Origin: Acidimicrobiia bacterium
GTDB taxonomy: Bacteria > Actinomycetota > Acidimicrobiia > Acidimicrobiales > JANYDT01
Direction of reading: 5' to 3'
DNA: 39,395 bases
Assembly: GCA_043754155.1 (NCBI GenBank)
Contig: JAYUVJ010000093.1
Location: forward strand, 1 to 39,395
This document shows, piece by piece, positions 7,401 to 35,353 of the stretch (its first letter is position 1; every line of letters begins with the position of its first letter). Below the pieces are notes generated by a model. The model was not told where the DNA came from. It was given only the letters and a program-made list of their open reading frames with translations, and did no database searches. The translations under genes and the position numbers were made by a program.

Positions 7401-7588
7401 ATGCCCGCAAGCTTCTCGAAGAGCGAGCCGCTGCGGTGGCCACAGCACCTTCCACCCTGGCACCTTCCACCTCTGCATCTTCCAGGCCAGCACCTTCCAC
7501 CCTGGCACCTTCTACCCTGGCACCTTCAACGACGGTCCCGTCCGCTTCTAAACCATCGATCGTCCCACCGATAACCGTAAAGCCCTAG
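4424..7588 (+). CDS. UPF0182 family multi-pass membrane protein (Rv3193c-like)
   Basis: 1054-aa ORF. The N-terminal multi-TM region carries YTDYLWFDRLSF, typical of UPF0182. A large soluble part follows, then a Gly/Ser-rich stretch and an (APSTL)n tail. Confidence 0.8.
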   Translation: MSSPMDMPGQPQQPRMRVVRPPSSGVGRRRGGLGAIVLGIFVFVGLLRALAGVYTDYLWFDRLSFTSVWSQLLTVKLVLGLGAAMLSGFSVWLTIGICAKAAPKTVRFAPNEELVAALREVLVAHTRAIRIGVSVLMGLLVGPVMASHWNEWILFRNGGSVGQSVPRFGGDVGFYLFKLPFLSSVGSWFFALLIVLVLVALVFHTVFASLRFGMGFPKGTHFVRMHITILLVLIALVKAVLYWFDRFALTTSTNGFVVGASYTDLVARRRGLELLVLVSLAAAVLLIVSLRRNDWMLHGVGAGVWLLVVIVATGIYPRVLARIVQSDEQNRERASITNNIAATRMAFGLNGVTTSILPLSDELPTADAAKKNAASTAAILANIRLWEPRADIAANTFTSTQKVNDNFSLQNVDVDRYTIDGLATPVIVAARELNLSPETRSSWLKSRLAYTHGFGLVVAKANRAGNAGLPSFVAKDLPPTGQLSVKQPRIYFGEQTDSYAVVGSKTPEVDFPGPDGAELTSSYAGKGGVAVGGPLRRLAFALRFGDANLIISKEVTSKAKLLYVRDVRARAKAVAPFLQFDNDPYPVFANDRIVWVLDAYTTSSHYPNSQYAPIGSVFPESGLYRKLNYVRNSAKVIVDAYDGSVRLYTTEALSSKRKNEKSTATANTDANTGVDPMIAAYRKAFPKLFRTNSQLDTDYPELRSHLRYPQDLFRMQTAMIGRYHVEKSDQFYKNSSRWELSANPGDSPAVKKDEGTLSNGLVAPVLSSAPINMRPYYLQSALPGSSKAEFFLQSNLVTWSENRDQQNLRAVFVAQSDPANYGQLKILTAPTDRQVSGPALVGRSMSSNADISAQESLLGTGGSQVRYGNMQVLPVNGSLLFVRPMFVEASNSNLPSLRFVAVSYRDKIGFDPTIEGALAKVGLDAQTGELTPAVGKGGSTKPGGSGAGGSGGSGAGGSSTDVAVLSDVADLLDAAQAALDSGDLGTYQSRVDDARKLLEERAAAVATAPSTLAPSTSASSRPAPSTLAPSTLAPSTTVPSASKPSIVPPITVKP
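7445..7534 (+). repeat. 15-bp tandem repeat (gcaccttccaccctg and variants) x6 inside the UPF0182 3' end
   Basis: Six consecutive 15-nt units were read directly. They encode APSTL-APSTS-ASSRP-APSTL-APSTL-APSTT. Confidence 0.9.
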
Positions 7589-7719: not shown

Positions 7720-7793
<74 letters not shown>

Positions 7794-7800
7794 CGAAGGA

Positions 7801-7837
7801 AACGCCCCAGGCTGAAAAGCTCGGGGCGTTTTTGTTT
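7801..7837 (+). terminator. Rho-independent terminator after the tRNA
   Basis: AACGCCCC (7801-7808) pairs with GGGGCGTT (7823-7830) across a 14-nt loop. The run TTTTTGTTTG follows. Confidence 0.7.
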
Positions 7838-7856
7838 GCCTGTTTGCCTGTTTGCC
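7833..7856 (+). repeat. 8-bp tandem repeat tgtttgcc x3
   Basis: Three perfect consecutive copies were read directly. The first copy overlaps the terminator T-tract. Confidence 0.9.
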
Positions 7857-7862
7857 GTAGAG

Positions 7863-7897
7863 ACGGGGGACGGGGAACGGGGAACGGGAGACGGGGG
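7863..7897 (+). repeat. G-rich 7-bp tandem repeat (acggggg/acgggga/acgggag) x5; G-quadruplex-type motif
   Basis: acggggg acgggga acgggga acgggag acggggg gives five G3-5 tracts separated by 2-4 nt. This meets the usual G3+N1-7 x4 rule. Confidence 0.85.
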
Positions 7898-8177
7898 ATA
7901 TCGATGAGTTCGACGTCGGTTCGCGCGACGGCATTTTTGATGATGTTGCGCTCAAAGCCCGAAGCTGAGAACAGTAGAAGGCGCAGGTCTCAAGGCTTGG
8001 GTTGGGGAGTAACGATCGAATGTGTTCGAGGCGTTCAAGGCTCAGCCGTCCAGCGAGGCGCAAGGGTGTGTTTTTTGGCTCACCGATAGCGATGATCGCG
8101 CCAGAGGGATTTGTGGCTACAACGTCAAGCTCGTGGCGGTGTCGTCCTTTCGCGTCGGTGACCTCGCAAAGTACCAA
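7891..8177 (-). pseudogene. Remnant of a DUF234-type (archaeal-ATPase family) ATPase gene: C-terminal nuclease-like module only, frameshifted
   Basis: The track ORF 7704..8177(-) begins ...GRHRHELDVVATNPSGAIIAIGEPKNTPLRLAGRLSLERLEHIRSLLP, matching the E-[IL]-D-[IV]-V-A...G-E-C-K-W pattern but with ECKW degraded to EPKN. Near 7980 the homology moves to another frame, which reads LLLFSASGFERNIIKNAVARTDVELIDIPRL, the typical C-terminus of this family. The whole N-terminal ATPase domain is missing, because the fragment starts 14 nt after the peptidase stop. No stop codon precedes the read-through, which runs antisense into the tRNA. Confidence 0.6.
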
Positions 8178-12367: not shown

Positions 12368-12528
12368 TCATCAAAATCGTCGTTATGACTTGTTGATTAG
12401 CCGCCGTTCACCTACGTTACTCGTAGCCGTGCGCCGGACCATTGGCTTTTGAGGGCGCAAACGAAGGTCACAACCTAATCCCGACCAATCTTGTCGGCTT
12501 TAACGACAATCGAGGGTAAACTGGACGA

Positions 12529-14343
12529 GTGAACGCTCCAGCTGAACGTATGCCCACCGCCGTTGAAGGTTTGAAGGCCGCTAGTCGTGGGCTTCTTGGC
12601 ACCCTGGTCGAAGAATTGGCCAACGACGCTCCGGATTTTACCGGGGATGCCACCAACCTCATCAAGTTCCACGGTTTCTACCAGCAGGATGACAGAGATA
12701 TCCGCCGTGAGAGGGCATCCAAGAAGCTGCCGCTCGAATACTCCTGCATGGTTCGTGCCAGCCTCCCCGGTGGCACCGTAACTGCCGATCAGTGGATTGC
12801 CATGGACAACCTGGCCTCCGAAATTGCCGACGGCTCGCTAAGAATCACCACCCGCCAAGGCATCCAGTTTCACTTCGTCCACAAGCCAGAGCTACGTTCA
12901 CTTATTAACACTCTGAACAAACACCTCGTCACTACCTTGGCAGCCTGTGGCGACGTAGTGCGTAACGTGATGGCCGATCCTGCACCCCACGCGGAGCGAG
13001 CCAACATCGATCTCGGACACTATGCACGCGAACTATCTGCTGCCTTTAAGCCGACGACGCGTTCTTACTATGACTTGTTCATTGATCATGAGTCGGCCGC
13101 ATCGGCAGTAGAAACGGCTCCTGAAATCGATGCGCTCTACGGAGAAACGTATTTGCCCCGCAAGTTCAAGATTGCTTTCGCGTGGCCCGGCGATAACTGC
13201 GTTGATCTGTACGCACATGATCTTGGCTTGATTCCGATTTTGTCCAACGGCCTCACCGGCGATGTGCAAGGTTGGATCGTGTTGGCCGGCGGCGGTATGG
13301 GCCAAAACCACGCCCGCGAAGGCGAAACCTATCCTCGTGTTGCCTCCATCATCGGCGCAGTTGGCGTGAACGATCTGCGTGCCGTGGGCGAAGAAGTCAT
13401 TGGCATCTTCCGTGATTTTGGTGACCGCACCGATCGTGGCCGAGCCCGCCTTAAGTACCTCATGGATGACCGCGGCCTGGATTGGTTCATCGCTGAAACC
13501 CGCACCCGCCTGGCCGCTCGTACGCAACCCGTTGAGCTGCAAGAAGCTCCCGCTCTACAACCTTGGGACGACTGCGATGAGCACCTGGGCTGGCACCCAC
13601 AAACCCTGGCTGCCGACGGAACCGGTGATACTTATTTCATTGGCATTCACGTTGAATCCGGTCGAGTGCGTGATGTCGCCGAAACCAGGGCCGACGAACA
13701 TCACGGCCAAGTTCGTACTGCCCTGCGAGCCATTGCTGATTCAGGCCTGGTTCCCGAGTTCCGTTTCACCGCCCGCCAAGATGTGCTGCTGTGTGGTGTG
13801 AACGTTTTTGATCGCATCAAGGTGGAAAATATTCTCCGTGCACATAGCGTTCCTCTCGCTCATCACTACACGCCAGTACGTCGCTTGGCTATGGCTTGCC
13901 CCGCACTCCCAACCTGTGGTCAGGCCCTCGCCGAAGCCGAACGGATCCTTCCGCGTCTCGCCGACGATGCCGCCAATGCACTCGATAAAGCTGGTATTGG
14001 CTCACAAGAACTTCGCATCAACGTCACCGGTTGCCCTAATGGTTGCGCACGTCCGTATACGTCGGAAGTCGGCCTGGTTGGTCGAGGTAAGCGCACGTAT
14101 GATCTTTACATCGGTGGTTCAGTAAGCGGGGACCGGTTGAACAAGCGTCTCGTCGCCGATATGCACGTCGATGATCTCGGCCCGGCCATGTCCACCCTGT
14201 TTGACCGTTACAGCCGTGAACGAAACAACGCCAAGGAAACCTTTGGTGACTGGTCGGCCCGTGTCGATCAAGCCGAGTTGCTGGGTTCACTACCGGCGCC
14301 AACCAAGAAGCGCCGTGCGACCAGCGCAGCTGATGCTGAGTAG
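12529..14343 (+). CDS. cysI: Assimilatory sulfite reductase hemoprotein (siroheme/[4Fe-4S]; CysI/Sir family)
   Basis: 604-aa ORF with a GTG start. LIKFHGFYQQDDRDIRRER parallels E. coli CysI RFHGMYQQDDRD. The cluster-binding motifs MACPALPTCGQALAEAER and INVTGCPNGCARPY (C-x5-C ... C-x3-C) are present. The electron donor (NADPH flavoprotein versus ferredoxin) cannot be decided here. Confidence 0.85.
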   Translation: MNAPAERMPTAVEGLKAASRGLLGTLVEELANDAPDFTGDATNLIKFHGFYQQDDRDIRRERASKKLPLEYSCMVRASLPGGTVTADQWIAMDNLASEIADGSLRITTRQGIQFHFVHKPELRSLINTLNKHLVTTLAACGDVVRNVMADPAPHAERANIDLGHYARELSAAFKPTTRSYYDLFIDHESAASAVETAPEIDALYGETYLPRKFKIAFAWPGDNCVDLYAHDLGLIPILSNGLTGDVQGWIVLAGGGMGQNHAREGETYPRVASIIGAVGVNDLRAVGEEVIGIFRDFGDRTDRGRARLKYLMDDRGLDWFIAETRTRLAARTQPVELQEAPALQPWDDCDEHLGWHPQTLAADGTGDTYFIGIHVESGRVRDVAETRADEHHGQVRTALRAIADSGLVPEFRFTARQDVLLCGVNVFDRIKVENILRAHSVPLAHHYTPVRRLAMACPALPTCGQALAEAERILPRLADDAANALDKAGIGSQELRINVTGCPNGCARPYTSEVGLVGRGKRTYDLYIGGSVSGDRLNKRLVADMHVDDLGPAMSTLFDRYSRERNNAKETFGDWSARVDQAELLGSLPAPTKKRRATSAADAE

Positions 14344-14432
14344 CTCAACGAGTCAACTAGGTTCACCTGCGAACACGCGCCAAGTCGGAACAGCGGTACC
14401 GTTGGCTCGATTCGACTGCCAGGCTGGTCACC

Positions 14433-15263
14433 ATGACTGGATCTAACGACTCCCCAGATTGGCGTGCACCAGTTCCGGTGGAAATACCGTCGGCCCAGCA
14501 ACCCATTTGGTTCCCGATTCTCCTTTCCCTTGGCGGACGGAAATGCGTAGTGGTGGGTGGCGGACCAATTGGTGCTCGCAAAGCCATCGGCCTTCGTGAT
14601 GCCGGCGCCGAAGTAGTTCTCGTGGCCACCAAACTCAGCCCCGAGGCCTTAGCGCTCACCGGTGTCACGCTCATCGAACGGCCCTACCTAAGCGCTGATT
14701 TGGAGGGTGCCTGGTTAGTGATCACGGCCGTCGACAATCAGGAAACCACCGCCCAAGTTGCCGTTGACGCAGCCGCTGCCCAAGTGTTCATGAACGCTTC
14801 GGATGACCCACCGTTTTGTACCTCGATTCTTCCGGCTACTCATCGCGACGGTGACGTAATCGTGGCCGTATCAACCGGCGGTGCCAGTCCGGCCGCAGCA
14901 TCGTGGATTCGTGACCGCATTGCTCACAGCCTGGGCTCCACTCCATCGCAGGTGGTGCGCCATGTCAGGGCGGTACGTGACCAGATTCGCCAAACCCGAA
15001 CCAGCGAAGGGCTGCCCTGGCGACCACTGATTTCCCAGGCTGCACAGGCGCTCGAAGCCCACGACCCAGACGAACTGCAACGTGCCACGACTGCCTGGAC
15101 CAACACACTGGGATATCGATGTGACCAGAGCGACTGCTCGGCACCATCATGTGGTTCACGCAACTGTGTGCGCTACGAAACAGCCCTGCAACAAGAAGTC
15201 CGTAGGTTGGAAGCACAAGCAGGACATAGCCGATTACCAGTCGAGGAGGCCACCACACCATGA
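14433..15263 (+). CDS. Precorrin-2 dehydrogenase / sirohydrochlorin ferrochelatase (CysG N-terminal domain / SirC-Met8 type) with a Cys-rich C-terminal extension
   Basis: 276-aa ORF with Rossmann motif GRKCVVVGGGPIGARKAIGLRDAGAEVVLVA, then VITAVDN..., then IVAVSTGGASPAAASWIR, typical of this family. The tail contains YRCDQSDCSAPSCGSRNCV. Confidence 0.8.
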   Translation: MTGSNDSPDWRAPVPVEIPSAQQPIWFPILLSLGGRKCVVVGGGPIGARKAIGLRDAGAEVVLVATKLSPEALALTGVTLIERPYLSADLEGAWLVITAVDNQETTAQVAVDAAAAQVFMNASDDPPFCTSILPATHRDGDVIVAVSTGGASPAAASWIRDRIAHSLGSTPSQVVRHVRAVRDQIRQTRTSEGLPWRPLISQAAQALEAHDPDELQRATTAWTNTLGYRCDQSDCSAPSCGSRNCVRYETALQQEVRRLEAQAGHSRLPVEEATTP

Positions 15264-16228
15264 TTGAGCTTACCGAACCCAACACCACTGCTCACGGTCT
15301 CCCTCGAGTGCTGGAAACCCCTGGCGATACAAAGCAAGGCGTTACAAAGCAAGGCGTTACCGTTACTAAACAAGGCGTTACAAAGCAAGGCGGTGCAAAG
15401 CAAGGCGGTGCAAAGCAAGGCGGGATCCTGGAGAGCACCGTAGATGCCAGGCTTGTCGAAGTTGCTGCCATTGATGCATCAACGGCCATAACCCCAGGCT
15501 TGACCTACCTTGTTGGAGCTGGGCCTGGCGATGTTGATCTCTTGACGGTTCGTGCCGTTCGAGTTTTGGGTTTGGCCGATGTGGTGTTGCATGATGCGCT
15601 CGTTGGCCCGGGCATCCTCGAACTTGCGCCTCTCGATGCCGAGTTGATTGATGTTGGTAAGCGTGCTGGCAATTCCTCGTCACAAGACATTATCTGTGCA
15701 CTAATGATTGAACTGGCTCGTCAGGGAAAAACCGTCGTTCGGCTCAAAGGTGGCGACCCGTTTGTGTTTGGCCGTGGCGGCGAAGAAATTGAGGCATTGC
15801 GCCAAGCCGGTCTCAACTACAGCGTTGTACCAGGTATCTCCTCATCGATTGCCGCCCCAGCAGCAGCAGGAATTCCCGTCACACACCGCAAGGTTTCTGC
15901 CGCCTACACCGTAGTAACAGGCCACCGAACCGAAGGTGCCGATCCTGTCGATTGGTCGGCACTAGCTAAAGTTGGCGGCACCATCGTGTTGTTGATGGCA
16001 GTCGGTCGACGTGGTGAAATAGCACGTGCGCTTATCGAAGGTGGGTTGCCTGGTACTACCCCAGTCGCTGCAATAACCAACGGTTCGCGAAACGACCAAA
16101 TCGATATTCGCACTACCCTCGCCGAGCTGCATCTCACCCCAGTTGAAGCCCCAGCAACGATTGTCGTCGGGGCCGTCGCCGCCATGGACCTCCGCGACCA
16201 AACGCGCTTCATTTCGACCGTCGGCTGA
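15260..16228 (+). CDS. cobA: Uroporphyrinogen-III C-methyltransferase (SUMT; CobA / CysG C-terminal domain)
   Basis: Motifs YLVGAGPGDVDLLTVRAVRVLGLADVVLHDALV, VVRLKGGDPFVFGRGGEE and VPGISSSIAAPAAAGIPVTHR. The ATG at 15260 overlaps the upstream stop (ATGA), but the conserved domain only begins near 15500, where an in-frame TTG gives (M)TYLVGAGPGD. The 5' 240 nt contain the 15-bp repeat, so the start is uncertain. Confidence 0.85.
   Translation: MIELTEPNTTAHGLPRVLETPGDTKQGVTKQGVTVTKQGVTKQGGAKQGGAKQGGILESTVDARLVEVAAIDASTAITPGLTYLVGAGPGDVDLLTVRAVRVLGLADVVLHDALVGPGILELAPLDAELIDVGKRAGNSSSQDIICALMIELARQGKTVVRLKGGDPFVFGRGGEEIEALRQAGLNYSVVPGISSSIAAPAAAGIPVTHRKVSAAYTVVTGHRTEGADPVDWSALAKVGGTIVLLMAVGRRGEIARALIEGGLPGTTPVAAITNGSRNDQIDIRTTLAELHLTPVEAPATIVVGAVAAMDLRDQTRFISTVG
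15331..15426 (+). repeat. 15-bp tandem repeat (aaagcaaggcgttac / aaagcaaggcggtgc) of about 6 copies plus a 6-nt partial insert
   Basis: Units at 15331, 15346, (cgttac 15361-15366), 15367, 15382, 15397 and 15412. In the cobA frame they read KQGVT-KQGVT-VT-KQGVT-KQGGA-KQGGA-KQGG. Confidence 0.95.
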
Positions 16229-16474
16229 AGCGAGAAAACCTACAGAGTTTGGTGCCCGCCAAGCGTATTGCAATGAGTTCGAACTAGCTGTTAGGTCTAG
16301 GCGTGTGGATGGCTTTGGGTAGTGGTTGCACAGAACCACCCACACGCTTGCCGGTCTCGGCGTACACAGGTCCTTGGGCGCACCACTTGACGTCAAAATC
16401 GTGAGCCATCCAAGGTCTTACAACATCGCAAAGGGGCGGAGATCGAAGGAACCCGTCCTAAGGGGTAACGCGAC

Positions 16475-16499
16475 AAACGCCGCCCGAAGGACGGCGTTT
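16475..16499. terminator. GC-rich hairpin, candidate bidirectional terminator between cobA and the MarR gene
   Basis: AAACGCCG (16475-16482) pairs with CGGCGTTT (16492-16499). The A/T runs on the two sides give a short U-tract on either strand. It lies 58 nt beyond the MarR stop. Confidence 0.5.
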
Positions 16500-16556
16500 G
16501 AATGGGTGCTTTGAGCGATCACCGACAGAATCGGCGGGAAGCAGCGGAGGAGGTGC

Positions 16557-17000
16557 TTAGGCCTCTACGCCTGCAAGTGCTGCGAGAGCCGAGGTGATGG
16601 CACCCTGGTTCTTGCCGGCAACTGCGAAGAAATCAGCATCGGCCTTGTCAACTTTTGGAAGGGCCTTACGTACAAGCGCACGACCAGCGGTGGTGAGAGT
16701 TACTCGCTGTGCACGCTTATCTTCGGCACTGGCGGCACGGGCAACAAGCTCACGGGCTTCGAGATTGCGAATTACTTGCGAGGTGGTCATTGGATCTACG
16801 CCTGAACGACCACTTACTTCTGCTTGTGAGAGGCCCTTGCGAGCATCGTCTGCTGCCAGTGTGGCGAGAAGCGCGTACTGCACGTGGGTGAGACCAAATG
16901 CCTCAAGTGCAGCGCGCTGGGCACGCTGCCAGGCATTGGTGGCACGCCACATAAGAAAGCCGGCACTTGACGGGGTGGCTACTGATCCTTGACCGCTCAT
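16557..17000 (-). CDS. MarR family transcriptional regulator
   Basis: Winged-helix region LTHVQYALLATLA...LSQAEVSGRSGVDPMTTSQVIRNLEARELVARAASAEDKRAQRVTLTTAGRAL. I place the start at ATG 17000 (MSGQGS...), which has AGGAG 10 nt upstream, rather than at the track start 17063. Confidence 0.85.
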   Translation of the reverse strand: MSGQGSVATPSSAGFLMWRATNAWQRAQRAALEAFGLTHVQYALLATLAADDARKGLSQAEVSGRSGVDPMTTSQVIRNLEARELVARAASAEDKRAQRVTLTTAGRALVRKALPKVDKADADFFAVAGKNQGAITSALAALAGVEA

Positions 17001-17444
17001 TTGAATGGTGCTCCTGAAGGTAGAGAGAGAAGGGACATTGTTTTTGCCAGCAGGTGCTTGCAAATCGGTACGACAGCATAGCGATAAATTCAGTATGCGT
17101 TCTTACGGCTGTTCTGGAATCTTTTTCGGCGCCGGAAGTGCAACAATTTTCTGGCGGCGAAAAACTAGTCGTGGAGCGGCAAGCTTGCAATCCAAAAGTG
17201 GGTGAGTGAACTACATGCGTGGAACTCGCAAAGCCTGCGCGCGCCCCAACGGACGACCGCCAACAGTGTTTGCCCAGCGTGTAAAGAGTATTGGCAAAGA
17301 AAGTGTGAGAAAGCTGAGGCCTTTCAATGGAAACCTACACAACAACTTTCGCCCACTAGCGTTCTCGTGTCTTCTTGGAAGAAGTTGGTTTTACTGAGCC
17401 AATTTCCCGATGCGTTCCCCCGCACTTTACGAAAGATCCTCCTC

Positions 17445-18224
17445 ATGCACTCTCCTCTGGCTGAATCTGTCTCGTCCACCCCAGTCACCCGTTCAGCATT
17501 ACGATGGCATCTTGCCGCCCCCTTGGGTTTGGTAACCGGGTGTGTCGCAACCGTGTGTGCGCTTATCGTAGGGAGTTTTTCGCCAGCGAGTGCGGCAAAG
17601 GTCCCAACTAAGCCGGCAAGTTCCACAACGATCACAACAAACTCCGCCCCTGGTTCATCCGTAGCTCCCGTGATCGCTTCTGTTCCCCCGGCTAAACCCA
17701 CTACCGATCTAAAGGGTGATATCGAGGCCAAGATTGCTTCTGTGCAACGAGAAGCTGCTCCAGGTTTGAAAGTGGGTGCGGTTTCTTGCCCAGCCACGTT
17801 GGCGGGGAAGAAGGCCAAGGTCCCGGTTGGAAATTACTCTTGCACCATCAGCATCGAGGGCGTACCCGCTCCCTATACGGTTATCGTTAAAGAGGGAGGT
17901 TCGCTGAAAGGTGGCGTGTTCCAGATCGCTCCCGCGAAAGCCATCATCGACATTTCTAAAATCGTTTCGTTTGTAAAGACCTCACTGGAGCCTGCCGACG
18001 CTGCTAAGGCAAAAATTTCGTGTGGAGCTGCAACAGTTGTGGTTGCCGATCCGGGAGCGCCGATCCTTTGCACGCTTACCCGTGGCAAAGCCGTTGAGAA
18101 GTTGGAATTCGAAATTCGCACCGTCAATGGTTTGGTCGCACTGAAAACCGGCGCTAAATCTGCTGTGCCTTCAACCATCCCTGCGGTTGTAGCTCCGTCA
18201 ACTATCGCCGTGCCCAAGTCATAA
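17445..18224 (+). CDS. Membrane-anchored/secreted protein with two DUF4333-like domains
   Basis: From ATG 17445 the protein has a hydrophobic anchor (LAAPLGLVTGCVATVCALIVGSF) and a Ser/Thr/Pro linker. Two modules follow, each with two Cys in the DUF4333 pattern (VSCPATLAGKKAKVPVGNYSCTISI... and ISCGAATVVVADPGAPILCTLTRG...). The track start at 17202 adds 81 implausible residues. Confidence 0.55.
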   Translation: MHSPLAESVSSTPVTRSALRWHLAAPLGLVTGCVATVCALIVGSFSPASAAKVPTKPASSTTITTNSAPGSSVAPVIASVPPAKPTTDLKGDIEAKIASVQREAAPGLKVGAVSCPATLAGKKAKVPVGNYSCTISIEGVPAPYTVIVKEGGSLKGGVFQIAPAKAIIDISKIVSFVKTSLEPADAAKAKISCGAATVVVADPGAPILCTLTRGKAVEKLEFEIRTVNGLVALKTGAKSAVPSTIPAVVAPSTIAVPKS

Positions 18225-18290
18225 GCGTTCCGCGTACTTAGGGTTGGCCTACTTTAACGTTGGTTCGTCGCTCCTCCAGATCCTTCTTGT

Positions 18291-19142
18291 TTAACCGTCG
18301 ACTCTCTCTTCGTTGACGTTGAGACCTTCAACCTGTTCGAGTACTTCGAGGTGATCGTTGTGCGAGTGAGTAAATCCCAGCGAACGTTCCTTTCGCACCG
18401 CCTCGCTCGACCGTAGGGCCACGATGTACGCGCGCCGATAGGAATCGGTGGAGTAGTTCCCGCCCGATCCGTGGAGGACACCCTCGTTGTGGACGGTGAT
18501 ATCGCCTCGAGCAATCGGTACTGCCGTCATCTGGTCACCGGCGCGAAGATCCGTCACCAGCGTGTGGCTTTTCGTGCGGTCCTCATGCAGCGGCCGGTGA
18601 GGACGGACTGGTTCGAGATGTGATCCGGCGAGGAACTGCATGCAGCCGTTCTCTTCCGTGGAGTCTTCAACAGCCAACCAACACGTGGCGGTTCGGCGAT
18701 CGTCGGTATCGATCCAATACGCCTGATCCTGATGCCAACCAAAAATCGCTTCAGGCCGGTTAGGGCTCTTGGCTAGAAGCTGATCGAAATCAATAGCCAT
18801 ACCTTCACCGCAGAGTTGATCGGCAATGGATTGTGCCCGTTGCTCGAAGATGTTGCCCACCCAGGCGGGGTAATAGCGCCTGGGCAGCATCACGTTGACT
18901 ATGGCGTATCCGGTGGGATCGGTGCCGTGTTCGCCGGTAGTCATATCGTTGAGGTCCTTACCGTCAACAGCGATTTCGCGGCGAAGAAATGCGTTGTAAA
19001 TCGTCTCAATCTCGTCAACTTCTTTGGGCGATAACACTCCTCGTAAGTGCACATACCCTCGCTTTGTGAAAGCGTCTATCTCTTCTGGGCTAACGAGGTA
19101 GCTTGCACCTTGGCGACGATTTTCAGAAGTAGTGCTGCTCAT
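18291..19142 (-). CDS. Phytanoyl-CoA dioxygenase (PhyH) family Fe(II)/2-oxoglutarate oxygenase
   Basis: 283-aa ORF. It has WHQDQAYW (His-x-Asp), a distal His in ITVHNEGVLHGSGGN, and family-typical length. Confidence 0.75.
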   Translation of the reverse strand: MSSTTSENRRQGASYLVSPEEIDAFTKRGYVHLRGVLSPKEVDEIETIYNAFLRREIAVDGKDLNDMTTGEHGTDPTGYAIVNVMLPRRYYPAWVGNIFEQRAQSIADQLCGEGMAIDFDQLLAKSPNRPEAIFGWHQDQAYWIDTDDRRTATCWLAVEDSTEENGCMQFLAGSHLEPVRPHRPLHEDRTKSHTLVTDLRAGDQMTAVPIARGDITVHNEGVLHGSGGNYSTDSYRRAYIVALRSSEAVRKERSLGFTHSHNDHLEVLEQVEGLNVNEERVDG

Positions 19143-19224
19143 GTCGAACCTCCTGTGTTGCTAACGATTTCGATGAAGATGAAGTTGGGCGGCATTTCAC
19201 AGCCGGTTGTTGCGATGTGGGTGC

Positions 19225-19265
19225 AAAAATAAAACTGGCGTTGAGGGAAGTCCCCCAACGCCAGT
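19225..19265 (-). terminator. Rho-independent terminator after the gpx gene
   Basis: On the minus strand ACTGGCGTTG (19265-19256) pairs with CAACGCCAGT (19243-19234) in a 10-bp perfect stem. TTTTATTTTT follows. Confidence 0.75.
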
Positions 19266-19311
19266 CTTTCATTCGGTGAAACCTTCAGCAGCGGTTGCCG
19301 AACCAATAGTT

Positions 19312-19785
19312 TCAGAGGTACTTGGCAACCTCAACCTGAAGCTCTTCGGGTGTGGACATGGGGGAGAAGCGGGCGACAGCCTTCCCTTCCTTGTCAACGA
19401 TGAACTTGGCGAAGTTCCACTTAATTTCAGCGGATTCTTCTTCGCCCGGTTGTTCATCTTTGAGCCACTTGTAAAGGTCGCAGGCATCGTCGCCGTTGAC
19501 TTCGATTTTGGAGAACATCGGGAAGGCCACGTCGTACTTCGTTTTGGCGAATTCGGCGATCTCTGCATCGGTGCCGGGCTCTTGGGCGCCGAACTGGTTA
19601 CAAGGAAATCCGAGGACGGTTACGCCTTCGGTTGTTTCATGAAGCGCACGCAGACCTGCGTACTGAGGCGTGAGGCCTCAAGCGGAAGCGACGTTGACGA
19701 TCAGGCAAACCTGACCGGCATACGCCGAAAGTGCCACTGCTTCGCCCGTTATGGACGTCATGGTGAAGTCGGAGAGAGTAGTCAT
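19312..19785 (-). CDS. gpx: Glutathione peroxidase with in-frame TGA at the catalytic position (predicted selenocysteine; transl_except at 19678-19680)
   Basis: ATG 19785 has GAGGG 4 nt upstream. Translation: MTTLSDFTMTSITGEAVALSAYAGQVCLIVNVASA-[TGA]-GLTPQYAGLRALHETTEGVTVLGFPCNQFGAQEPGTDAEIAEFAKTKYDVAFPMFSKIEVNG...IKWNFAKFIVDKEGKAVARF.... There is a single frame throughout (157 codons) and the TGA is codon 36. The track lists only the last 72 aa. The alternative reading is a recent nonsense pseudogene. Confidence 0.7.
19646..19663 (-). promoter_or_regulatory. Candidate bacterial SECIS hairpin
   Basis: The minus-strand RNA GUACGCA-GGUC-UGCGUGC forms a 7-bp stem (one G-U pair) with a GGUC loop and starts 14 nt after the UGA. 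Its core GCAGGUCUGC equals the apical core of the E. coli fdhF SECIS as I recall it. Confidence 0.55.
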
Positions 19786-19923
19786 AAGACCCTCGACGGT
19801 AGTTGGTTCCGCAAGGCAATGTCACACATTGAGGCCTACGCTGCATTTAGGACGACCATGTAGGACCCTTACAACCCTTACCTCGACGGACAGCCAACCC
19901 GGAGAGCACCGTTCTAGGAATCG

Positions 19924-22509
19924 TTACGCAGCGGGCTCCGGATCGGCGAGCGTTACTTCGTAGATCGCTTCTTTGAGCCCAGCATCTTCCCGATAGGTCA
20001 GCTCCGCTACTCCACCCGAGTCACGAAGATCTTGCTCAACGAGTTTCAGCTCGGCAATACGCTCCGGGGTGTCCCGGATGATCATGCTCGAAACTACGGT
20101 CTTCATGCTGCGTTTAGCTTCGGTTTTGGTACGTCTTGCCGCTCCTAGGGCGTCACCAACAATGCTGAGCAATGCCTGATTGCCCTTTGTTGGAGTGGCA
20201 ATTTCGGCCGTAGCCGGCCAGGTTTGGGCATGTACGGATTCTGTGTTCCACCAAGAGTACACCTCGTCGGTAACGAAGGGTAGGAAGGGGGCAAACAGTC
20301 GTTGCAGTACGCGGAGGATGGCAGCCAATGTGGCCTTAGCGCTGTCGGCCTCTGGATCACCAATCAGTCCGTAAGCGCGCTTCTTAACCAGTTCTACGTA
20401 GTCGTCGCAAAAGAACCAGAAGAACGATTCGGTACGTTCCAAAGCACGGGCATAGTCATAGGCGGTAAAGGCCGTGGTTGCTTCATCGATAAGCGCGCTG
20501 AGCTTTGCTAAAACCGCCATGTCGACGGGGGCCGTAACCGCACTGATAGGAGGAGCTTCATCATCGCCCAGGATGGTGAGCACGAACTTGGAAGCATTGA
20601 GCAACTTGATGGCCAGTTTGCGGCCGATCCTCATCTGTCCGGTATCAAAGGTGGTGTCTACGCCGGGGCGTGCCGAGGAAGCCCAGTAACGAACTGCGTC
20701 GGAGCCATGTTCAACCAACAGGTCGACGGGGGTAACTACGTTACCCTTTGATTTCGACATTTTCTTGCGATCCGGGTCAAGAATCCATCCGCTAATAGCG
20801 ATGTTCCTCCACGGAACCGAGTTGTGCTCAAAATGCGCACGAACCGTCGAGGAAAACAGCCACGTACGAATGATGTCGTGACCCTGCGGGCGAAGATCCA
20901 TCGGGAACATGCGGGAAAAAAGATCCGGATCGTCTTCCCAACGGCCAGCGATTTGGGGACTCAACGATGACGTAGCCCAGGTATCGAGCACGTCGGCATC
21001 GCCCTGGAATCCGCCCGGCGTGCCGCGTTGATCGGCTGAGTACCCATCCGGAACATCGGTCGACGGATCGATTGGTAAGCGCGCTTCGTTGGGCTTGAGC
21101 GGCACGTCGTAGTTGGGTTCACCGTCGGCGTCGAGGGCGTACCAAAGCGGGATGGGTACACCGAAGAAACGTTGACGGCTGATAAGCCAATCGCCGTTCA
21201 AACCACCAACCCAATTCTCGTAGCGGTGCCACATGAATTCGGGCACCCATTGCAGTTCACGTCCCCGGACTTGAAATTCTTCGCGCAGTTTCTCTTCGCG
21301 GCCACCGTTGCGGATATACCACTGGCGGCTCGACACGATTTCGAGGGGACGATCGCCCTTTTCAAAGAACTTCACCGGATGGCTGATCGGTTTCGGCTCG
21401 CCCAGCATTTCGCCGGTGGCCCGCAGCTGTTCGACGATCTTTACCTGCGCCTGTTTAACGCTCAACCCAACGAGTTGTTGATAGGCGTCTTTACCTTCTG
21501 GCGACGTGATGATCTCGGGGCAGTCGCTGAGGATACGACCGTCTCGGCCAATGACAGTCCGGGTTGGGAGGTTGAGCTCGCGCCACCAAATTACGTCGGT
21601 GAGATCACCAAACGTACAGATCATGGCAATACCCGAACCCTTATCGGGCTGGGCTAATGGGTGGGCCAGAACGGGAACTTCAGCACCGAACAACGGGGTG
21701 CGGACCATGGTGCCGAACAGGGGTTTGTAGCGGGCATCGTCGGGATGGGCAACGATAGCGACACAGGCAGGGAGCAACTCTGGACGAGTGGTTTCGATGA
21801 TGATGTCGCCAGCACCGGTCGGTGAGCCCTCGGCTTTGTGGAACGCGAGGCAATGATATGCACCCGGACGTTCGCGGTCCTCCAACTCGGCTTGGGCCAC
21901 AGCGGTTTTGAAGTCGACGTCCCAGAGCGTTGGTGCGTCTTGGCTATAAGCCTCGCCGCGTTCCAGGTTGCGAAGGAAGGCGCGCTGTGAAGCCCTGCGC
22001 GAACGCTCATCAATCGTGGCGTACTGCAGGTTCCAATCGACCGAAAGACCAAGCGTGCGGAACAGGGCCTCGAAGGCTTTTTCGTCCTCTTTGGTGAGTT
22101 CTTCGCACAGCGCGATGAAGTTGGGGCGGCTAACCGGGATGGGCTGCTTGCCGGGTTCAGCGGGTGGCTTGAATGAAGGATCAAACGGCAGAGAAGGATC
22201 ACAGGAAACGCCGTAATAGTTTTGGACGCGACGCTCCGTAGGGAGGCCGTTGTCGTCCCAGCCCATTGGATAGAAAACCTTCTTGCCGGTCATGCGTTGG
22301 AAACGGGCAATCGTGTCGGTATGGGTATAGCTGAACACGTGGCCAACATGGAGCGAGCCACTGGCCGTTGGGGGAGGGGTGTCGATCGAATACACATCGG
22401 CCCGCACGGCCGTCCGGTCGAAGTCGTACACGCCGCTGGCTTCCCAACGTTCGCCCCACTTTTGCTCGACTCCGTCTAACGACGGCTTTTCCGGAATGTT
22501 CGTACCCAT
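19924..22509 (-). CDS. valS: Valine--tRNA ligase
   Basis: 861-aa ORF with the HIGH-type motif PPPTASGSLHVGHVFSYTHTD and KMSKS (RKKMSKSKGNVV). FYPMGWDDNGLPTERRVQNYYGV is typical of the actinobacterial/archaeal-like ValRS type. Confidence 0.9.
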   Translation of the reverse strand: MGTNIPEKPSLDGVEQKWGERWEASGVYDFDRTAVRADVYSIDTPPPTASGSLHVGHVFSYTHTDTIARFQRMTGKKVFYPMGWDDNGLPTERRVQNYYGVSCDPSLPFDPSFKPPAEPGKQPIPVSRPNFIALCEELTKEDEKAFEALFRTLGLSVDWNLQYATIDERSRRASQRAFLRNLERGEAYSQDAPTLWDVDFKTAVAQAELEDRERPGAYHCLAFHKAEGSPTGAGDIIIETTRPELLPACVAIVAHPDDARYKPLFGTMVRTPLFGAEVPVLAHPLAQPDKGSGIAMICTFGDLTDVIWWRELNLPTRTVIGRDGRILSDCPEIITSPEGKDAYQQLVGLSVKQAQVKIVEQLRATGEMLGEPKPISHPVKFFEKGDRPLEIVSSRQWYIRNGGREEKLREEFQVRGRELQWVPEFMWHRYENWVGGLNGDWLISRQRFFGVPIPLWYALDADGEPNYDVPLKPNEARLPIDPSTDVPDGYSADQRGTPGGFQGDADVLDTWATSSLSPQIAGRWEDDPDLFSRMFPMDLRPQGHDIIRTWLFSSTVRAHFEHNSVPWRNIAISGWILDPDRKKMSKSKGNVVTPVDLLVEHGSDAVRYWASSARPGVDTTFDTGQMRIGRKLAIKLLNASKFVLTILGDDEAPPISAVTAPVDMAVLAKLSALIDEATTAFTAYDYARALERTESFFWFFCDDYVELVKKRAYGLIGDPEADSAKATLAAILRVLQRLFAPFLPFVTDEVYSWWNTESVHAQTWPATAEIATPTKGNQALLSIVGDALGAARRTKTEAKRSMKTVVSSMIIRDTPERIAELKLVEQDLRDSGGVAELTYREDAGLKEAIYEVTLADPEPAA

Positions 22510-22690
22510 AGGCCGTCAAGGATAGAACCCCCGCCTACTCGCCCCGGTGGCTTTGTTGCGCTTGTCCGATTTCAGATTCGGATTGTGTTGAGGCCCCGGA
22601 GCAACGACCACGATTTGCTCCCTTCGCTCCCCGTAACGAAATGATCCGCACCCGTCGCCTCAGCCGCTGCACTATGAATGGCAACCAAAG

Positions 22691-23916: not shown

Positions 23917-24858
23917 TTAGGCAGGCTGCGCCAAAACGGTTGGGAGGCCCATGGGATTTGGGTAGCGGATCGTCCCCGATTCTGCGACGACACGGGCAAG
24001 AGGATCAAGGATCGCAACCAGACGAGCGATGCTTTGGCTGGGCGTGCCTCCCGATGTGTCGGCAAGAAGGTGAAAGGGTTGGGTTGCGAGTTGGTTAGTC
24101 ATCGTTTCGATGTTTCGTCGCATTTCTCTACCAAACTCCGTCATCTGCCAATCAGCTTTGTGGGTCACAAGACCACGGGCTTGGAGACCTGCGAGGCAGT
24201 TGTTCCATTGTTCGACTGACCAACCTCTTGTGCGAGCCAGATCGTCGAAGGAGTTCTGTTGTTCCACAGCGATTAGTACGTGCGCTTCTAATCCTGAAAG
24301 AGCGGAGGCGGTGTAGGCAACGACATGACCATCGCCGCGATGTTCCCGCAGCAACGTGCAGAGTTGCCAAAGCCGCTCGACAACATCAACCGGTAGCGCA
24401 ACATCACGGTTTGCGGCAAACACCGGTCGGCCAGACCAGTAGCAATGTTCAAGCACTTCTTCAATGATGGGGTTTGCTACTGCAGCAACTGGCGAGAGAT
24501 CGAAGCCAGTGGCTTCGGCGCACCGACGAAGAGTGGATGCCGCAGCAGCAGACCGAGTGGCAAGCGCTATTTCCGGGGTGGTTGACTCCCAAATTGTTGG
24601 GATCCAACGCCGGACAAACGGGAGGGAGAAACTGTTGAAGGCCGCGTCGTAGACCCCAGCGGTGGCGAGGCCAAGCGGCGCGCCTCGAAATGCAAAGTAG
24701 CCCTTCCACCAGGAGTCAAGTCCAATCGACTTCGCGGCTTCGGCCGATTCCGCGCCGAAGTAGGTAACAGCGTGAATCGTCTCATAGCGCATCCACAGCG
24801 CCCGAGCTGCCGGCGTTGGTGTGAGAGGAACTTCTTCAATCATCGTCTCAATCTCCAA
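23917..24858 (-). CDS. SCO6745-family protein (function unknown), paralog 1
   Basis: 313-aa ORF with IHAVTYFGAE...YFAFRGAPLG...LLREHRGDGHVVAY...RTRGWSVEQWNNCLAGLQARGLV. It shares this motif order with the ORF at 34517-35353. The family assignment is from memory of the LREHRGDGH / RGW...W...L..RG pattern. Confidence 0.6.
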   Translation of the reverse strand: MEIETMIEEVPLTPTPAARALWMRYETIHAVTYFGAESAEAAKSIGLDSWWKGYFAFRGAPLGLATAGVYDAAFNSFSLPFVRRWIPTIWESTTPEIALATRSAAAASTLRRCAEATGFDLSPVAAVANPIIEEVLEHCYWSGRPVFAANRDVALPVDVVERLWQLCTLLREHRGDGHVVAYTASALSGLEAHVLIAVEQQNSFDDLARTRGWSVEQWNNCLAGLQARGLVTHKADWQMTEFGREMRRNIETMTNQLATQPFHLLADTSGGTPSQSIARLVAILDPLARVVAESGTIRYPNPMGLPTVLAQPA

Positions 24859-24997: not shown

Positions 24998-26422
24998 CTA
25001 TAGCGGGGCTAATTCGTAGGTGTCTTTGCCGTCTTTCATTGACCATCCTACGGTGGTTAGCTCTGCGCGCAGACGATCAGCTTCTGCCCAATCCTTGGCC
25101 AGGCGGGCACTCCAGCGCTGCTCTGCCAACAGCTTTATTTCGTCGCTGGCTGGTTCGAAGACCCGAAAGTGCGTTCCGAAATTGAGCCCGAACGCTGTAT
25201 CGAAAAAGCTGAGAGTCGCAGCCTTAACAGCATCTGGTAGGTCTGTTTTGGTCAGCTCCCATGCGAGCGCAAGTGCCCTTGGGAAATTGAGATCATTGTT
25301 CAGAAATTCTAGAAACTGGCTCACGTATTCTGGATCGGGTTGTTCGACAATAGGTTTGATGGCCCCAGTTTTTGACCCGTCAGCTGTCCAGGTCATGAAG
25401 AATGCGTCCAGCCGAGCGAATGCCCGAGCCGACGCATCGAGTGACTCCCAGGAGAAATCGAGCTGAGTCCGGTAGTGTGCAGTGAGGTTCATGTACCGAT
25501 AGTGAATGGGGAGATACCCACGATCAATCAGTACCTGGAGTCTTAAAAACTCGCCGGTGGATTTCGACATTTTGTCGCTGTTAAACAGCATGAAAAAGCC
25601 GTGCATCCAGTAGTTGGCAAGCCGGGTTTCATACGCAGCTTCGGTTTGGGAAATCTCGTTGGTGTGGTGAATCGCTACGTGGTCTTCGCCGCCGCAATGG
25701 ATATCGAACAACGCGCCCAAATACTTTTGCGCCATGGCTGAGCATTCGATGTGCCAACCCGGGAAACCCCGTCCCCAGGGTGAGTCCCATTCCATTTGGC
25801 GTTGCTCGACCGATTCGCCATCCTTTGCAACGGGAGAGAACTTCCACAACGCGTAGTCGGTGAGGTTGCGTTTCTCGCCCAACTCAACGCGTGCCCCACC
25901 TTGGAGACCGTCGATATCAACTCGGCCTAAGTAGCCATAGTCATCCTGTTTGGAAGTATCGAAGTACACGCCGTCACTGGTGACGTAGGTGAACCCGCGA
26001 TCCTCGATGCGTTGAATGAAATCGATTTGTTCGGGGATGTGGTCGGTGGCTTTGCACCAGATGGTCGGCGACACAATGTTCAGTGCACGTAGGTCTTTTT
26101 CAAACGCAACGGTGTATTCCTCGGCGATATCCCATGCCGTTTTGCCGGTTCTGCGTGAACCAGCTTCCATCTTGTCTTCGCCATCGTTGCCATCGGAAAC
26201 CAAATGGCCCACATCAGTGATGTTCATCACGTGGTTCACCTTGTAGCCGTTGAGACGCAGTACGCGGGTGAGGCCGTCCTCAAACAGATAGGTGCGCAGA
26301 TTTCCTATGTGGGCATAGTTGTAAACCGTGGGCCCACAGGTATACAAACCCACCTGCCCGGGGACGAGCGGAATGAATTCGCGTAGGGATCGGGTCCAGG
26401 TGTCGTACAACTTGAGTGCCAC
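24998..26422 (-). CDS. cysS: Cysteine--tRNA ligase
   Basis: Motifs [20 protein letters not shown] (HIGH-type) and KMSKSTG, with a C-terminal [20 protein letters not shown] tail typical of CysRS rather than MshC. I place the start at GTG 26422 ((M)[15 protein letters not shown], aligning with E. coli MLKIFNTLTRQKEEF). GGAGG sits only 1 nt upstream, so the start is not certain. The track's 56-codon N-terminal extension reads through the 84-bp repeat. Confidence 0.85.
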
Positions 26423-26530
26423 GCCTCCAAGGTTAGAGGGGCAAGTGACTATCGAATGCTCAGAATTCGTATCATTTAGCCGCTGACCCCGCACCGATCC
26501 AGCCGTCGAACTCTCACCGATCGAGCCGTT

Positions 26531-26690
26531 GGGCTCTTGGCGAGTGCGGTCGATTTGCCTGTCCAGAGATGCCGTTGTAACCGGAATCAAGAGTTGAGTG
26601 TGAGGACTGGTGTATTCCCAGCAGCGAGTGCGGTCGATTTGCCTGTCCAGAAGAGGGGTGTTGACCGGATTCGAGATTTAGGTGTGTGCA
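26531..26690. repeat. Tandem duplication with an 84-bp period, two copies
   Basis: cgagtgcggtcgatttgcctgtccaga occurs identically at 26531 and 26615. The next ~40 nt of each copy align with scattered substitutions (gatgccgttgtaaccggaatcaagagttgagtgtgagga versus agaggggtgttgaccggattcgagatttaggtgtgtgca). Confidence 0.9.
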
Positions 26691-29611: not shown

Positions 29612-30700
29612 ATGTCAAAGATCGTCGCTACACTTTCGGGTGTGGTGACGATTCACGAACGCAAGCCTGCGGTGGGAAGTGCGCGCGTTCACGGGGCGCT
29701 CTGTTTCGGGAGTACCGACGCAAGTTTCGCGAACGGTTCACGGCACGAAGAAGGATGCGCGGCGCATTGCTGCTGAGTTGACGGTTGCACCGTCGGGTCG
29801 TGCCGCTGGTCGTTCGGTGTCGGATGTGTTGGAGGCGTGGGTGCGCAAGCACGATGCAACTTGGGCACCGGCATCGCGTCGTGATCAGTTGTCGCGTGTG
29901 GCGCGGATCAACGGCGATCGGATCGCTCGTTTGTCGGTTGCGCGGTTGACGATCGAGGATGTCGAGCGTTGGCATGCGCGCTTACGAGACGAGGGATTGG
30001 CCGACGTCTCGATTCGGAACATTCATGGCGTGTTGCGTGCGGCGTTAACGCAGGCGGTTCGGTGGGGTTGGATTTCGCGCAACGTTGCGTCGCTGGCGGA
30101 GTTGTCGTCTCGCAAGGTTGTGGCTCGTGGGGTGATGAGTGCTTCGGAGATTCGTGCAGTGATAGCTGCCGGTGATGCGATCGGTTCTGAGGTTGGGTTG
30201 ATGCTGCGGATTGCGGCGGTGACTGGAGCGCGTCGTGCGGAGCTGGCGGCGTTGCAGTGGGCGGACGTGGTGGACGGTGTGTTGACGATTGACTCAGCGA
30301 TTGAGATTGATCGCCGTCGCGGAAAGGTGGCGTTGGCTGATGCGCCGACGAAGACTGCAAATCAAAGGCGACTAACGCTTGATGCGGCGACGTTGGTTGT
30401 CGTTGAGCGCGAGCGGGTGGAACGTGAGGAGTTCGGCCCGTGGATGTTCACGGTCGGCGACGTGCCCCCGAACCCGGATCGCATTGGCTATTGGTGGCGG
30501 ATCGCCCGTGAGAAGTCGGGCATCAAGGTGAAGTGGCGTCTCCACGACTTGCGTCACTGGTCGGCGTCGGCGGCAATCGCCGCGGGCCACGACATCAAGA
30601 CCGTTGCGGATCGTTTGGGTTGCAAGTCTTACTTTTGATACGCGAGGCGTTGACCGGGATAAGTCTGATCGTCTGGCGATCCGGCGGGCGCTCGCCGTTG
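29612..30700 (+). pseudogene. Decayed tyrosine recombinase (phage-type integrase)
   Basis: The main ORF (29679-30638) has the core-binding and catalytic regions (LRIAAVTGARRAELAALQWADV; WRLHDLRHWSASAAIAAGHDIKTVADRLG). It stops at ...GCKSYF*, before the catalytic Tyr. The expected tail continues in the +1 frame as SLTFDTRGVDRDKSDRLAIRRAL, in which the Tyr position of the usual T-L-D-T-Y-G/A-H motif reads Arg. At the 5' end the motif WEVRAFTGRSVSGVPTQVSRTVHGTKKDA is preceded by an in-frame TGA (29646), and a plausible N-terminus (MSKIVATLSGVVTIHERKPAVGS, ATG 29612) lies in another frame. Confidence 0.7.
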
Positions 30701-34516: not shown

Positions 34517-35353
34517 TTAGGCAAGAGACCCGTAGGTTCCGGCGCCAGTCATGGCTACGTGGATTGGATCGAGCAACTCGGCCAGACGTTTTGCTCCTGC
34601 TTCGCCGATCGGCTTCCAGATTGATTCGCACAGCCGATCGGTTTCGTCCTCTAGGTGTTCCCGAGCGGTAACACCGGCTTCGGTCATTGCTCCATTGTTG
34701 GTCACCCATCCACGAGCATTTAAACCAACAATGGCCTTCGCCCACTCCTGCTCGTTCCACATCCGTGTTGCCTGGGTAATGGCGAGCGGAAAACGGCCGG
34801 TGCCAACTTGGAGAACCATGGACTCGCACGGACCAATGTCGTTGGCGACCAGGAGCGCAATGTGGACATCACCACGCCATTCGCGAATGATCGTCACCTG
34901 TTGCCATAACGCTAGTAGTGCATCATCGGGTAGGGGCACCGCCGAGTTAGCCCCAGCCAGTGGCTTGCCCGCCAAACTTAATCCAGCGACGACGGGATCA
35001 ATAAGCGCGCGTGCCTCTGCGATTTGTTCTGGTGACGGGGCGCAGTCCACGCGGTCAAACGATCGTCGAATCGCGCGAAAGCGCGCGGCTTGCAGTTCCT
35101 GTGGCGTAGCACCGGCCCAGACTTTGCCGATCTCTGCTGTACGTACGGCTTTTTCGCTGAAGTTATAAAACGTGGCGAGAATTACCTCATCGGGAACCAC
35201 CCCTATCGGAGCAGTTCGTGAAGCAAAGTACGTGCCTCGACCTGGCTCTACCCCAAGCGTCGCGTATTCTTCGTTGGCCTCAGGTACAAAGTACACAGGG
35301 CGATGAGCCATGCTGATTGCTGCGTGAACACTGCGAACGATTGAGCGATCCAT
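34517..35353 (-). CDS. SCO6745-family protein (function unknown), paralog 2
   Basis: 278-aa ORF with HRPVYFVPEA...YFASRTAPIG...IIREWRGDVHIALL...TRMWNEQEWAKAIVGLNARGWV. The motif order is the same as in 23917-24858. Confidence 0.6.
   Translation of the reverse strand: MDRSIVRSVHAAISMAHRPVYFVPEANEEYATLGVEPGRGTYFASRTAPIGVVPDEVILATFYNFSEKAVRTAEIGKVWAGATPQELQAARFRAIRRSFDRVDCAPSPEQIAEARALIDPVVAGLSLAGKPLAGANSAVPLPDDALLALWQQVTIIREWRGDVHIALLVANDIGPCESMVLQVGTGRFPLAITQATRMWNEQEWAKAIVGLNARGWVTNNGAMTEAGVTAREHLEDETDRLCESIWKPIGEAGAKRLAELLDPIHVAMTGAGTYGSLA

Follow-up and report, generated by a model that had tools for sequence, protein, structure and literature searches.

Selenocysteine (Sec)-containing glutathione peroxidases (GPx) of bacteria have been predicted since 2004-2005 and now form an established predicted family. 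One genome case, that of Treponema denticola, was known in 2006 (PMC1794560). The Sargasso Sea data contributed five Sec-GPx sequences endowed with bacterial SECIS elements (PMC1088965), and the GOS data 40 Sec forms as against 3,287 forms with cysteine (Cys) (PMC2398784). A 2026 review lists a 'GPX-like protein, PF00255, UxxT' and grades it as predicted with high confidence (PMC13188914). In the literature searched, no link was found between Sec-GPx and Acidimicrobiia or Ilumatobacter.

The gene considered here lies in a stretch of 39,395 nucleotides from an Acidimicrobiia bacterium, hereafter called the window. Its reading frame is crossed by a single UGA codon, which very probably encodes selenocysteine. 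An earlier note on this DNA had already judged Sec recoding likelier than a random nonsense mutation. Three lines of comparison agree with that judgement: the TGA column in homologous genes, the coding constraint on both sides of the codon and a linked hairpin that is conserved in TGA forms only. The note had also supposed that Sec-GPx had been reported in only a few bacteria and in metagenomes. This rarity was overstated, given the family listed in PMC13188914, the five Sargasso Sea and 40 GOS sequences, and the 59 genomes and at least 120 metagenome contigs that are added here.

The reading frame and its internal UGA codon

The complete coding sequence occupies 19312..19785 on the minus strand and comprises 157 sense codons, Sec being codon 36. 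It starts with the ATG at 19783..19785 (minus strand), the N-terminus MTTLSDF being common to the window and to its closest relative, locus L001, and it ends with its own TGA stop codon at 19314-19312 (minus strand). The internal in-frame UGA, the predicted Sec codon U36, is found at 19678..19680 on the same strand, within the motif NVASA-U-GLT (UxxT). In minus-strand translation its context is ...QVCLIVNVASA-TGA-GLTPQYAGLRALHE.... Thirty-five codons precede it and 121 follow it, with no other interruption of the frame. A Shine-Dalgarno-like GAGGG, as read from the sequence, lies 4 nt 5' of the ATG (19790..19794, minus strand), and a terminator-like 17-bp stem-loop with a T run begins 43 nt 3' of the stop codon (19231..19268, minus strand). 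This description bears out what had been proposed beforehand, namely an intact minus-strand GPx of 157 codons, a single TGA at 19680-19678 at the catalytic position of the NVAS motif, 35 and 121 codons in one frame around it, a putative Shine-Dalgarno sequence upstream and a putative terminator downstream. The frame was re-read and translated with the same result. It had likewise been foreseen that annotation would reduce the gene to a 72-aa fragment; indeed, the list of open reading frames has just a C-terminal fragment of that size at this locus, 19312..19530.

When U is replaced by C, the protein matches the Pfam family GSHPx (PF00255) with an E-value of 2.3e-39 and 133.7 bits (cutoff 27), and the match spans profile positions 3-108 of 108. 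The scores against NCBIfam NF007900 (160.2 vs a cutoff of 270) and TIGR02540 (130.9 vs a cutoff of 207.3) are below the equivalog thresholds. As judged from these profiles, the product is a member of the family, yet no equivalog of BtuE or Gpx7.

The catalytic tetrad of GPx4 consists of U46, Q81, W136 and N137. All four predicted counterparts, to which roles are assigned by homology to GPx4, are present in the window protein as U36, Q68, W123 and N124. The Trp123-Asn124 codons (motif KWNF; 19414..19419, minus strand) were located by translation and homology and had been correctly pointed out in the earlier note. The note's choice of catalytic Gln, the one in FPCNQFG, did not hold. The predicted catalytic residue is Gln68 in the motif GAQEP instead (codon at 19582..19584, minus strand), which we take to be the equivalent of GPx4 Q81.

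A collection of related species genomes was scanned with a query made of only the 121 residues 3' of the TGA, so that the scan was unable to favour either a TGA or a Cys codon. It returned 80 loci. The codon before G-L-T-P-Q-Y is TGA in 59 of these and TGC or TGT in the other 21; all non-TGA homologues in the genome set hence have Cys at the catalytic column. The alignment of orthologues, a check that had been suggested from the outset, accordingly consists of 60 TGA sequences, window included, and 21 Cys sequences (TGC/TGT). TGA forms occur in Acidimicrobiia, in several gammaproteobacterial groups (Pseudomonadales, OM182, Azotimanducaceae and Halioglobus), in Myxococcota and in one alphaproteobacterium. 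Metagenomes scanned with an exact signature that combines TGA and hairpin, TGAGGNNTNACNNNNCAGTACGCAGGTCTGCGT, yielded at least 120 contigs, and the signature is in-frame within a GPx gene in all 80 contigs that were fetched.

The segment that precedes the UGA is under constraint as well. The 28 codons 5' of the TGA are stop-free in 59 of 59 loci, and their entropy across these TGA loci amounts to 0.98, 0.72 and 1.45 bits at codon positions 1, 2 and 3, respectively. On sequence grounds, this pattern is what purifying selection leaves in a translated segment. When the window is compared with L001, the 35 upstream codons differ by three synonymous changes and one non-synonymous change, and the 121 downstream codons by 24 synonymous and 12 non-synonymous changes. 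No second lesion was present in any GPx copy examined. The earlier note had held that TGC in close relatives, together with a decayed allele here, would speak against recoding; L001 keeps the TGA, and the changes on both sides of it are mostly synonymous. It is from these comparative data, and not from the single sequence, that the more-than-chance status of the TGA follows.

The hairpin downstream of the UGA codon

Bacterial SECIS elements have been generalised as a stem of 6-8 bp whose small apical loop contains a conserved G, some 20 nt past the UGA (PMC4605307; PMC1088965). The predicted SECIS hairpin of the window gene, GUACGCA-GGUC-UGCGUGC (19646..19663, minus strand), has a 7-bp stem and spans the codons for Q-Y-A-G-L-R-A. 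It begins 14 nt after the UGA. Its GGUC loop, placed by fold and alignment at 19656-19653 (minus strand), brings the loop Gs to nt 22-23 after the UGA. This geometry agrees with the 6-8 bp stem and the loop G at about 20 nt of the generalisation in PMC4605307. The SECIS search that had been proposed at the start has in this way led to a SECIS-type hairpin at the expected distance from the codon, conserved in TGA forms only.

Taken alone, the minimal hairpin has a folding energy of -8.5 kcal/mol, and the fold energy of the 69-nt region on its own does not differ significantly from that of shuffled sequences (z -0.83). The case for a SECIS therefore rests on comparative data. The hairpin lies at an identical distance from the UGA in all 60 TGA sequences, and no GPx copy departs from the common UGA-to-apex spacing. 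If the structure is imposed, 98.7% of the cells are paired in the TGA alignment vs 48.3% in the Cys alignment. Without an imposed structure, RNAalifold recovers the helix in the TGA alignment (-8.87 kcal/mol), whereas it finds nothing at the same site in the Cys alignment (-0.09 kcal/mol). Third codon positions within the hairpin have an entropy of 0.39 bits if the gene carries TGA and of 1.23 bits if it carries a Cys codon; for the flanks, the corresponding values are 1.6-1.8 bits and 1.35-1.6 bits. Since third positions over the hairpin are frozen in the TGA genes alone, the RNA is constrained only where it accompanies the UGA codon.

Variants that preserve pairing comprise a change from U-A to U-G at the second pair and the wobble pairs of locus L035. 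A double change from G-C to A-U is seen in four distinct sequences, in which the protein goes from QYAGLR to QYTGLC, that is, with two amino acid changes. Covariation proper is thin (this one pair, four distinct sequences) because the stem is nearly invariant. Rfam gave no SECIS match, either for the window at the gathering threshold or for 19550-19800 at E<=10.

A search for further genes in which an in-frame TGA is followed by the SECIS apex of the GPx gene gave GPx copies only, plus a single match in locus L019. The latter was not retained as a further selenoprotein, as it looks like wrong-frame GC-rich noise. Other ORFs of the window that are split by TGA include many chance cases, none of which has a SECIS-like apex. 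In the fold of the window sequence, the UGA itself is paired in a 6-bp hairpin, UGAGGC/GCCUCA (19664-19680), directly before the SECIS stem. This hairpin, whose third positions vary freely, was not counted as part of the SECIS. The Pro codon in the same stretch is CCU in 58% of the TGA loci, and in Cys loci its third position is most often G (67%).

The apex of the window hairpin has a known counterpart. The SECIS of E. coli fdhF (NC_000913) carries an identical apical 10-mer, GCAGGUCUGC. In both genes this 10-mer makes up the three top pairs and the GGUC loop (GCA/UGC being the closing pairs), its reading frame is the same (Ala-Gly-Leu), and it is located within the coding sequence shortly 3' of the UGA. 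There are also differences. The distance from the apex to the U of the UGA is 21 nt in the window GPx vs 18 nt in fdhF, one codon further. The window stem is a perfect 7-bp helix, whereas the fdhF SECIS has a bulged U. Unlike fdhF, the window GPx has no conserved long lower helix, and its minimal hairpin is the more stable of the two (-8.5 vs -4.2 kcal/mol). To judge by this alignment of features, the window hairpin would work like the fdhF element and is no copy of it.

These features can be assembled into a model of decoding. The UGA at codon 36 would not be taken as a stop, and the hairpin 14 nt 3' would act as a bacterial SECIS. SelB carrying Sec-tRNA(Sec) would bind this hairpin and bring selenocysteine to the ribosome. 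The second UGA (19314-19312) is followed by no such hairpin and would lead to normal termination.

Host, Sec machinery and other readings of the codon

The window has a G+C content of about 56%. The closest of the 80 loci, L001, comes from the MAG of an Acidimicrobiia bacterium (JAYTWN01); its GPx is 90% identical in protein, and its synteny with the window, at a nucleotide identity of 75-86%, covers 12467-22557. Ilumatobacteraceae or Acidimicrobiales account for the nine loci that come next. The host belongs to the Acidimicrobiia, as shown by the closest loci and the synteny with L001, which fits the earlier description of the genome as actinobacterial-looking. By the same comparison, it probably stands near the Ilumatobacteraceae.

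The GPx gene is preceded by valS (19924-22509, minus strand) and followed by a gene for a PhyH-family dioxygenase (18291-19142, minus strand). Synteny with L001 extends over the region 12529-16228, where a gene for a sulfite reductase hemoprotein (CysI-like, 593 bits) is followed by the siroheme synthase halves as separate genes. Redox or stress genes located apart from the GPx gene encode a MarR-family regulator (16557-17063), an Old-Yellow-Enzyme-type flavin oxidoreductase (33322-34395) and the peroxide stress protein YaaA (37230-38018; NF002542, 335 bits vs a cutoff of 278). Two HTH_67 paralogues (PF21863; E-values of 5e-74 and 1e-80) are encoded on the minus strand about 10 kb apart, at 23917-24858 and 34517-35353. 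A phage-integrase-family gene (29679-30638; PF00589, E 5e-10) stands between acyl-CoA dehydrogenase and 2OG-Fe(II) oxygenase genes, and its surroundings show no obvious prophage. The only RNA gene detected in the window by ARAGORN and Rfam is that of a tRNA-Met (7720-7794). Before it, a 15-nt tandem repeat, GCACCTTCCACCCTG, present in 5.5 copies with 80% matches (7445-7527), is situated at the 3' end of a 1054-aa UPF0182-like gene (4424-7588), and two further short repeats come after the tRNA (7833-7856 and 7862-7898).

Neither the 39-kb window nor the flanks of 160 homologous loci contain a tRNA-Sec detectable by ARAGORN. Similarly, tblastn with E. coli SelA, SelB and SelD gave no match in the window or in the flanks, i.e. 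the sequence within 10 kb of the 160 homologous loci, about 1.8 Mb. This absence of sel genes from window and flanks is weak evidence because their linkage to client genes is not expected. Indirect support comes from the same class, as selA, selB, selC and selD are reported for all 84 complete genomes of Actinomarina (Actinomarinales, Acidimicrobiia; 2026 preprint, bioRxiv 10.64898/2026.04.03.716425). The retention of UGA, SECIS and downstream ORF in many lineages, as deduced from the sequences, would be hard to explain without a working Sec system.

Could the UGA be read as a standard amino acid, with no Sec involved? Trp or Cys might be inserted by a near-cognate or suppressor tRNA or as a result of lineage-wide reassignment. 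What gives this idea some substance is that Trp occupies the catalytic position in 23 of the best 120 full-length GPx matches in the protein database. However, the resolving-Cys column of these 23 Trp forms holds Ala or Val in all but one, where the motif is unreadable. From these residues, the Trp forms are best read as Sec forms whose TGA was translated with a genetic code that does not apply. In a GPx, Trp at the redox position would moreover abolish catalysis, which counts against readthrough as Trp. TGA ends nine of the 25 confident window genes, this GPx gene among them, and, being an ordinary stop there, indicates that UGA is not reassigned in this organism. Furthermore, a hairpin with the SelB-binding apex of fdhF has no part in simple readthrough, and the non-TGA homologues all have Cys, as expected of the known Sec/Cys pair. 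Decoding as a standard amino acid is accordingly improbable.

If the Trp forms are indeed Sec forms, public protein sets contain mistranslated selenoproteins. Apart from such copies, intact Sec forms are absent from the database of 5.8 billion proteins, among the best 120 matches listed. Identity to the window GPx does not exceed 68% even for the best full-length database proteins.

A dead gene, inactivated by a chance nonsense mutation in its catalytic Cys codon, is a slightly poorer candidate still. Viewed alone, the sequence is an ORF broken by a stop, from which gene callers obtain a 72-aa fragment, and the window lacks sel genes. Against this, the same TGA recurs in the genomes of 59 other species and in at least 120 contigs from metagenomes, both sides of it display codon-position constraint and an excess of synonymous changes, the linked RNA hairpin is conserved in TGA forms only, and the copies examined are free of a second lesion. 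That the TGA, one base away from TGC or TGT, is a sequencing or assembly error is hardly credible, as the same base appears in independent assemblies from many projects and technologies and is accompanied by the hairpin as well as by Ala or Val in the resolving-Cys column. We are left with selenocysteine as the preferred meaning of codon 36.

The resolving cysteine, the reductant and known peroxidases

Alignment of Sec and Cys forms places Ala80 of the window GPx (codon at 19546..19548, minus strand) in the column of the resolving Cys of Cys-type GPx. This column separates the two forms. All 61 Sec forms carry Ala or Val in it, whereas 19 of the 21 Cys forms carry Cys; among the metagenome Sec forms, none of 80 has Cys there. 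In a neighbour-joining tree, all Sec forms make up one clade, with the Acidimicrobiia largely together. Four Cys forms (from loci L054, L022, L026 and L071) are nested inside this clade, which points to Sec-to-Cys reversions.

Locus L071 (10001-10900 of an Ilumatobacteraceae MAG, JBEBGL010000007.1) carries a tandem GPx pair in which a Cys form, beginning near 9,900, is immediately followed by a Sec form whose TGA lies at 10465 and which has the SECIS apex in common with the window gene. The two are sisters in the tree. In the Cys copy, a Cys is found three residues before the usual resolving position (EVCEF). By sequence, the tandem looks as if the gene had recently been duplicated and one copy then converted from Sec to Cys.

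Among solved structures, the best matches of the window GPx (E-values from 1e-44 to 1e-38) are 2v1m, a GPx of Schistosoma mansoni (E 7.7e-44), and human GPX4 entries (about 1e-38). Together with the Ala or Val at the resolving-Cys column, these matches to monomeric GPx4-type enzymes suggest a GPx4-like cycle that operates without an internal disulfide passed to thioredoxin. The product would then be a small GPx4-like selenoenzyme of the glutathione-peroxidase family. Its substrates would be H2O2 or organic hydroperoxides, reduced in a cycle between selenolate and selenenic acid that relies on the tetrad U36, Q68, W123 and N124. In a clade without resolving Cys, it is probably an external thiol that reduces the oxidised Sec directly, as happens in GPx4; for the window enzyme, this means that Sec36 would be regenerated without recourse to an internal disulfide and thioredoxin.

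The nature of the thiol was approached through a CysRS-like gene of the window (24998-26590), since a mycothiol ligase, MshC, would have pointed to mycothiol as the GPx reductant. The gene scores 191 against an MshC cutoff of 485 and is a true CysRS (403 bits vs a cutoff of 340). Another cysteine of the GPx itself, Cys102 (DACDLY; codon 19480-19482), occurs in 44 of 61 Sec forms as against three of 21 Cys forms, the latter having mostly His, Ala or Asp at this position. From its distribution, Cys102 could be an alternative partner of the oxidised Sec, or it could be unrelated.

Current understanding of selenoproteins is left unchanged by the window GPx, which will not surprise a selenoprotein specialist. 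The new points are modest: the host lineage, an apex identical to that of fdhF and frozen across phyla, and the strict absence of the resolving Cys. Standard annotation hides a predicted functional antioxidant enzyme, although dozens of species and many metagenomes contain its gene, and the combination of TGA and hairpin provides a clean, searchable SECIS signature for the re-annotation of MAGs. For the host lineage, a working selenocysteine system is predicted and therefore a requirement for selenium. A more ambitious, joint interpretation may be offered as a tentative one, which we consider possible and rather less than probable. It assumes that aquatic and soil bacteria of several phyla share a large clade of GPx4-like selenoperoxidases, most of it unannotated, to which the gene belongs. 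The clade would represent a distinct mechanistic class, without resolving Cys, often with Cys102, and with a frozen fdhF-type SECIS that dictates QYAGLR; it would imply an undescribed Sec-decoding trait in Ilumatobacteraceae-like Acidimicrobiia and maybe, in an actinobacterial host, the use of a non-glutathione thiol. If this were true, the fact that eukaryotic GPx4-type enzymes are so similar could be relevant to the origin of Sec-GPx.

How does the window GPx compare with known peroxidases? The bacterial UxxT family, as described from T. denticola, the Sargasso Sea and GOS, has the same Pfam domain, the U-G-L-T motif and Sec in place of the peroxidatic Cys. It also shares a bacterial-type SECIS within the coding region, with a G in a small apical loop. 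The window gene differs by its host lineage, Acidimicrobiia, which the papers retrieved do not connect with Sec-GPx.

The Cys-type, thioredoxin-dependent GPx of bacteria, yeast and plants (atypical 2-Cys enzymes) belong to the same fold family, possess the catalytic Gln, Trp and Asn, and are the neighbouring homologues of the window GPx in the alignment. They differ from it at two sites: the window enzyme has a predicted Sec at the peroxidatic site, and it has Ala80 and no resolving Cys after the FPCNQFG block (the E-I-x-x-F-C column). With the GPx4-type enzymes, exemplified by human GPX4 and the S. mansoni GPx (2v1m), the window protein has in common a size of about 160 aa, a catalytic Sec (predicted in the window) and Ala at the resolving-Cys column; the motifs EFA and VNGDDA are also shared with human GPX4. 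In eukaryotes, too, GPx fall into Sec and Cys types, a split mirrored by the strict association of Sec with a missing resolving Cys seen here; this association makes the predicted type of reductant testable. The means of decoding are different, however. Eukaryotic GPx4-type genes carry their SECIS in the 3'-UTR and depend on different factors, whereas that of the window GPx lies inside the coding sequence.
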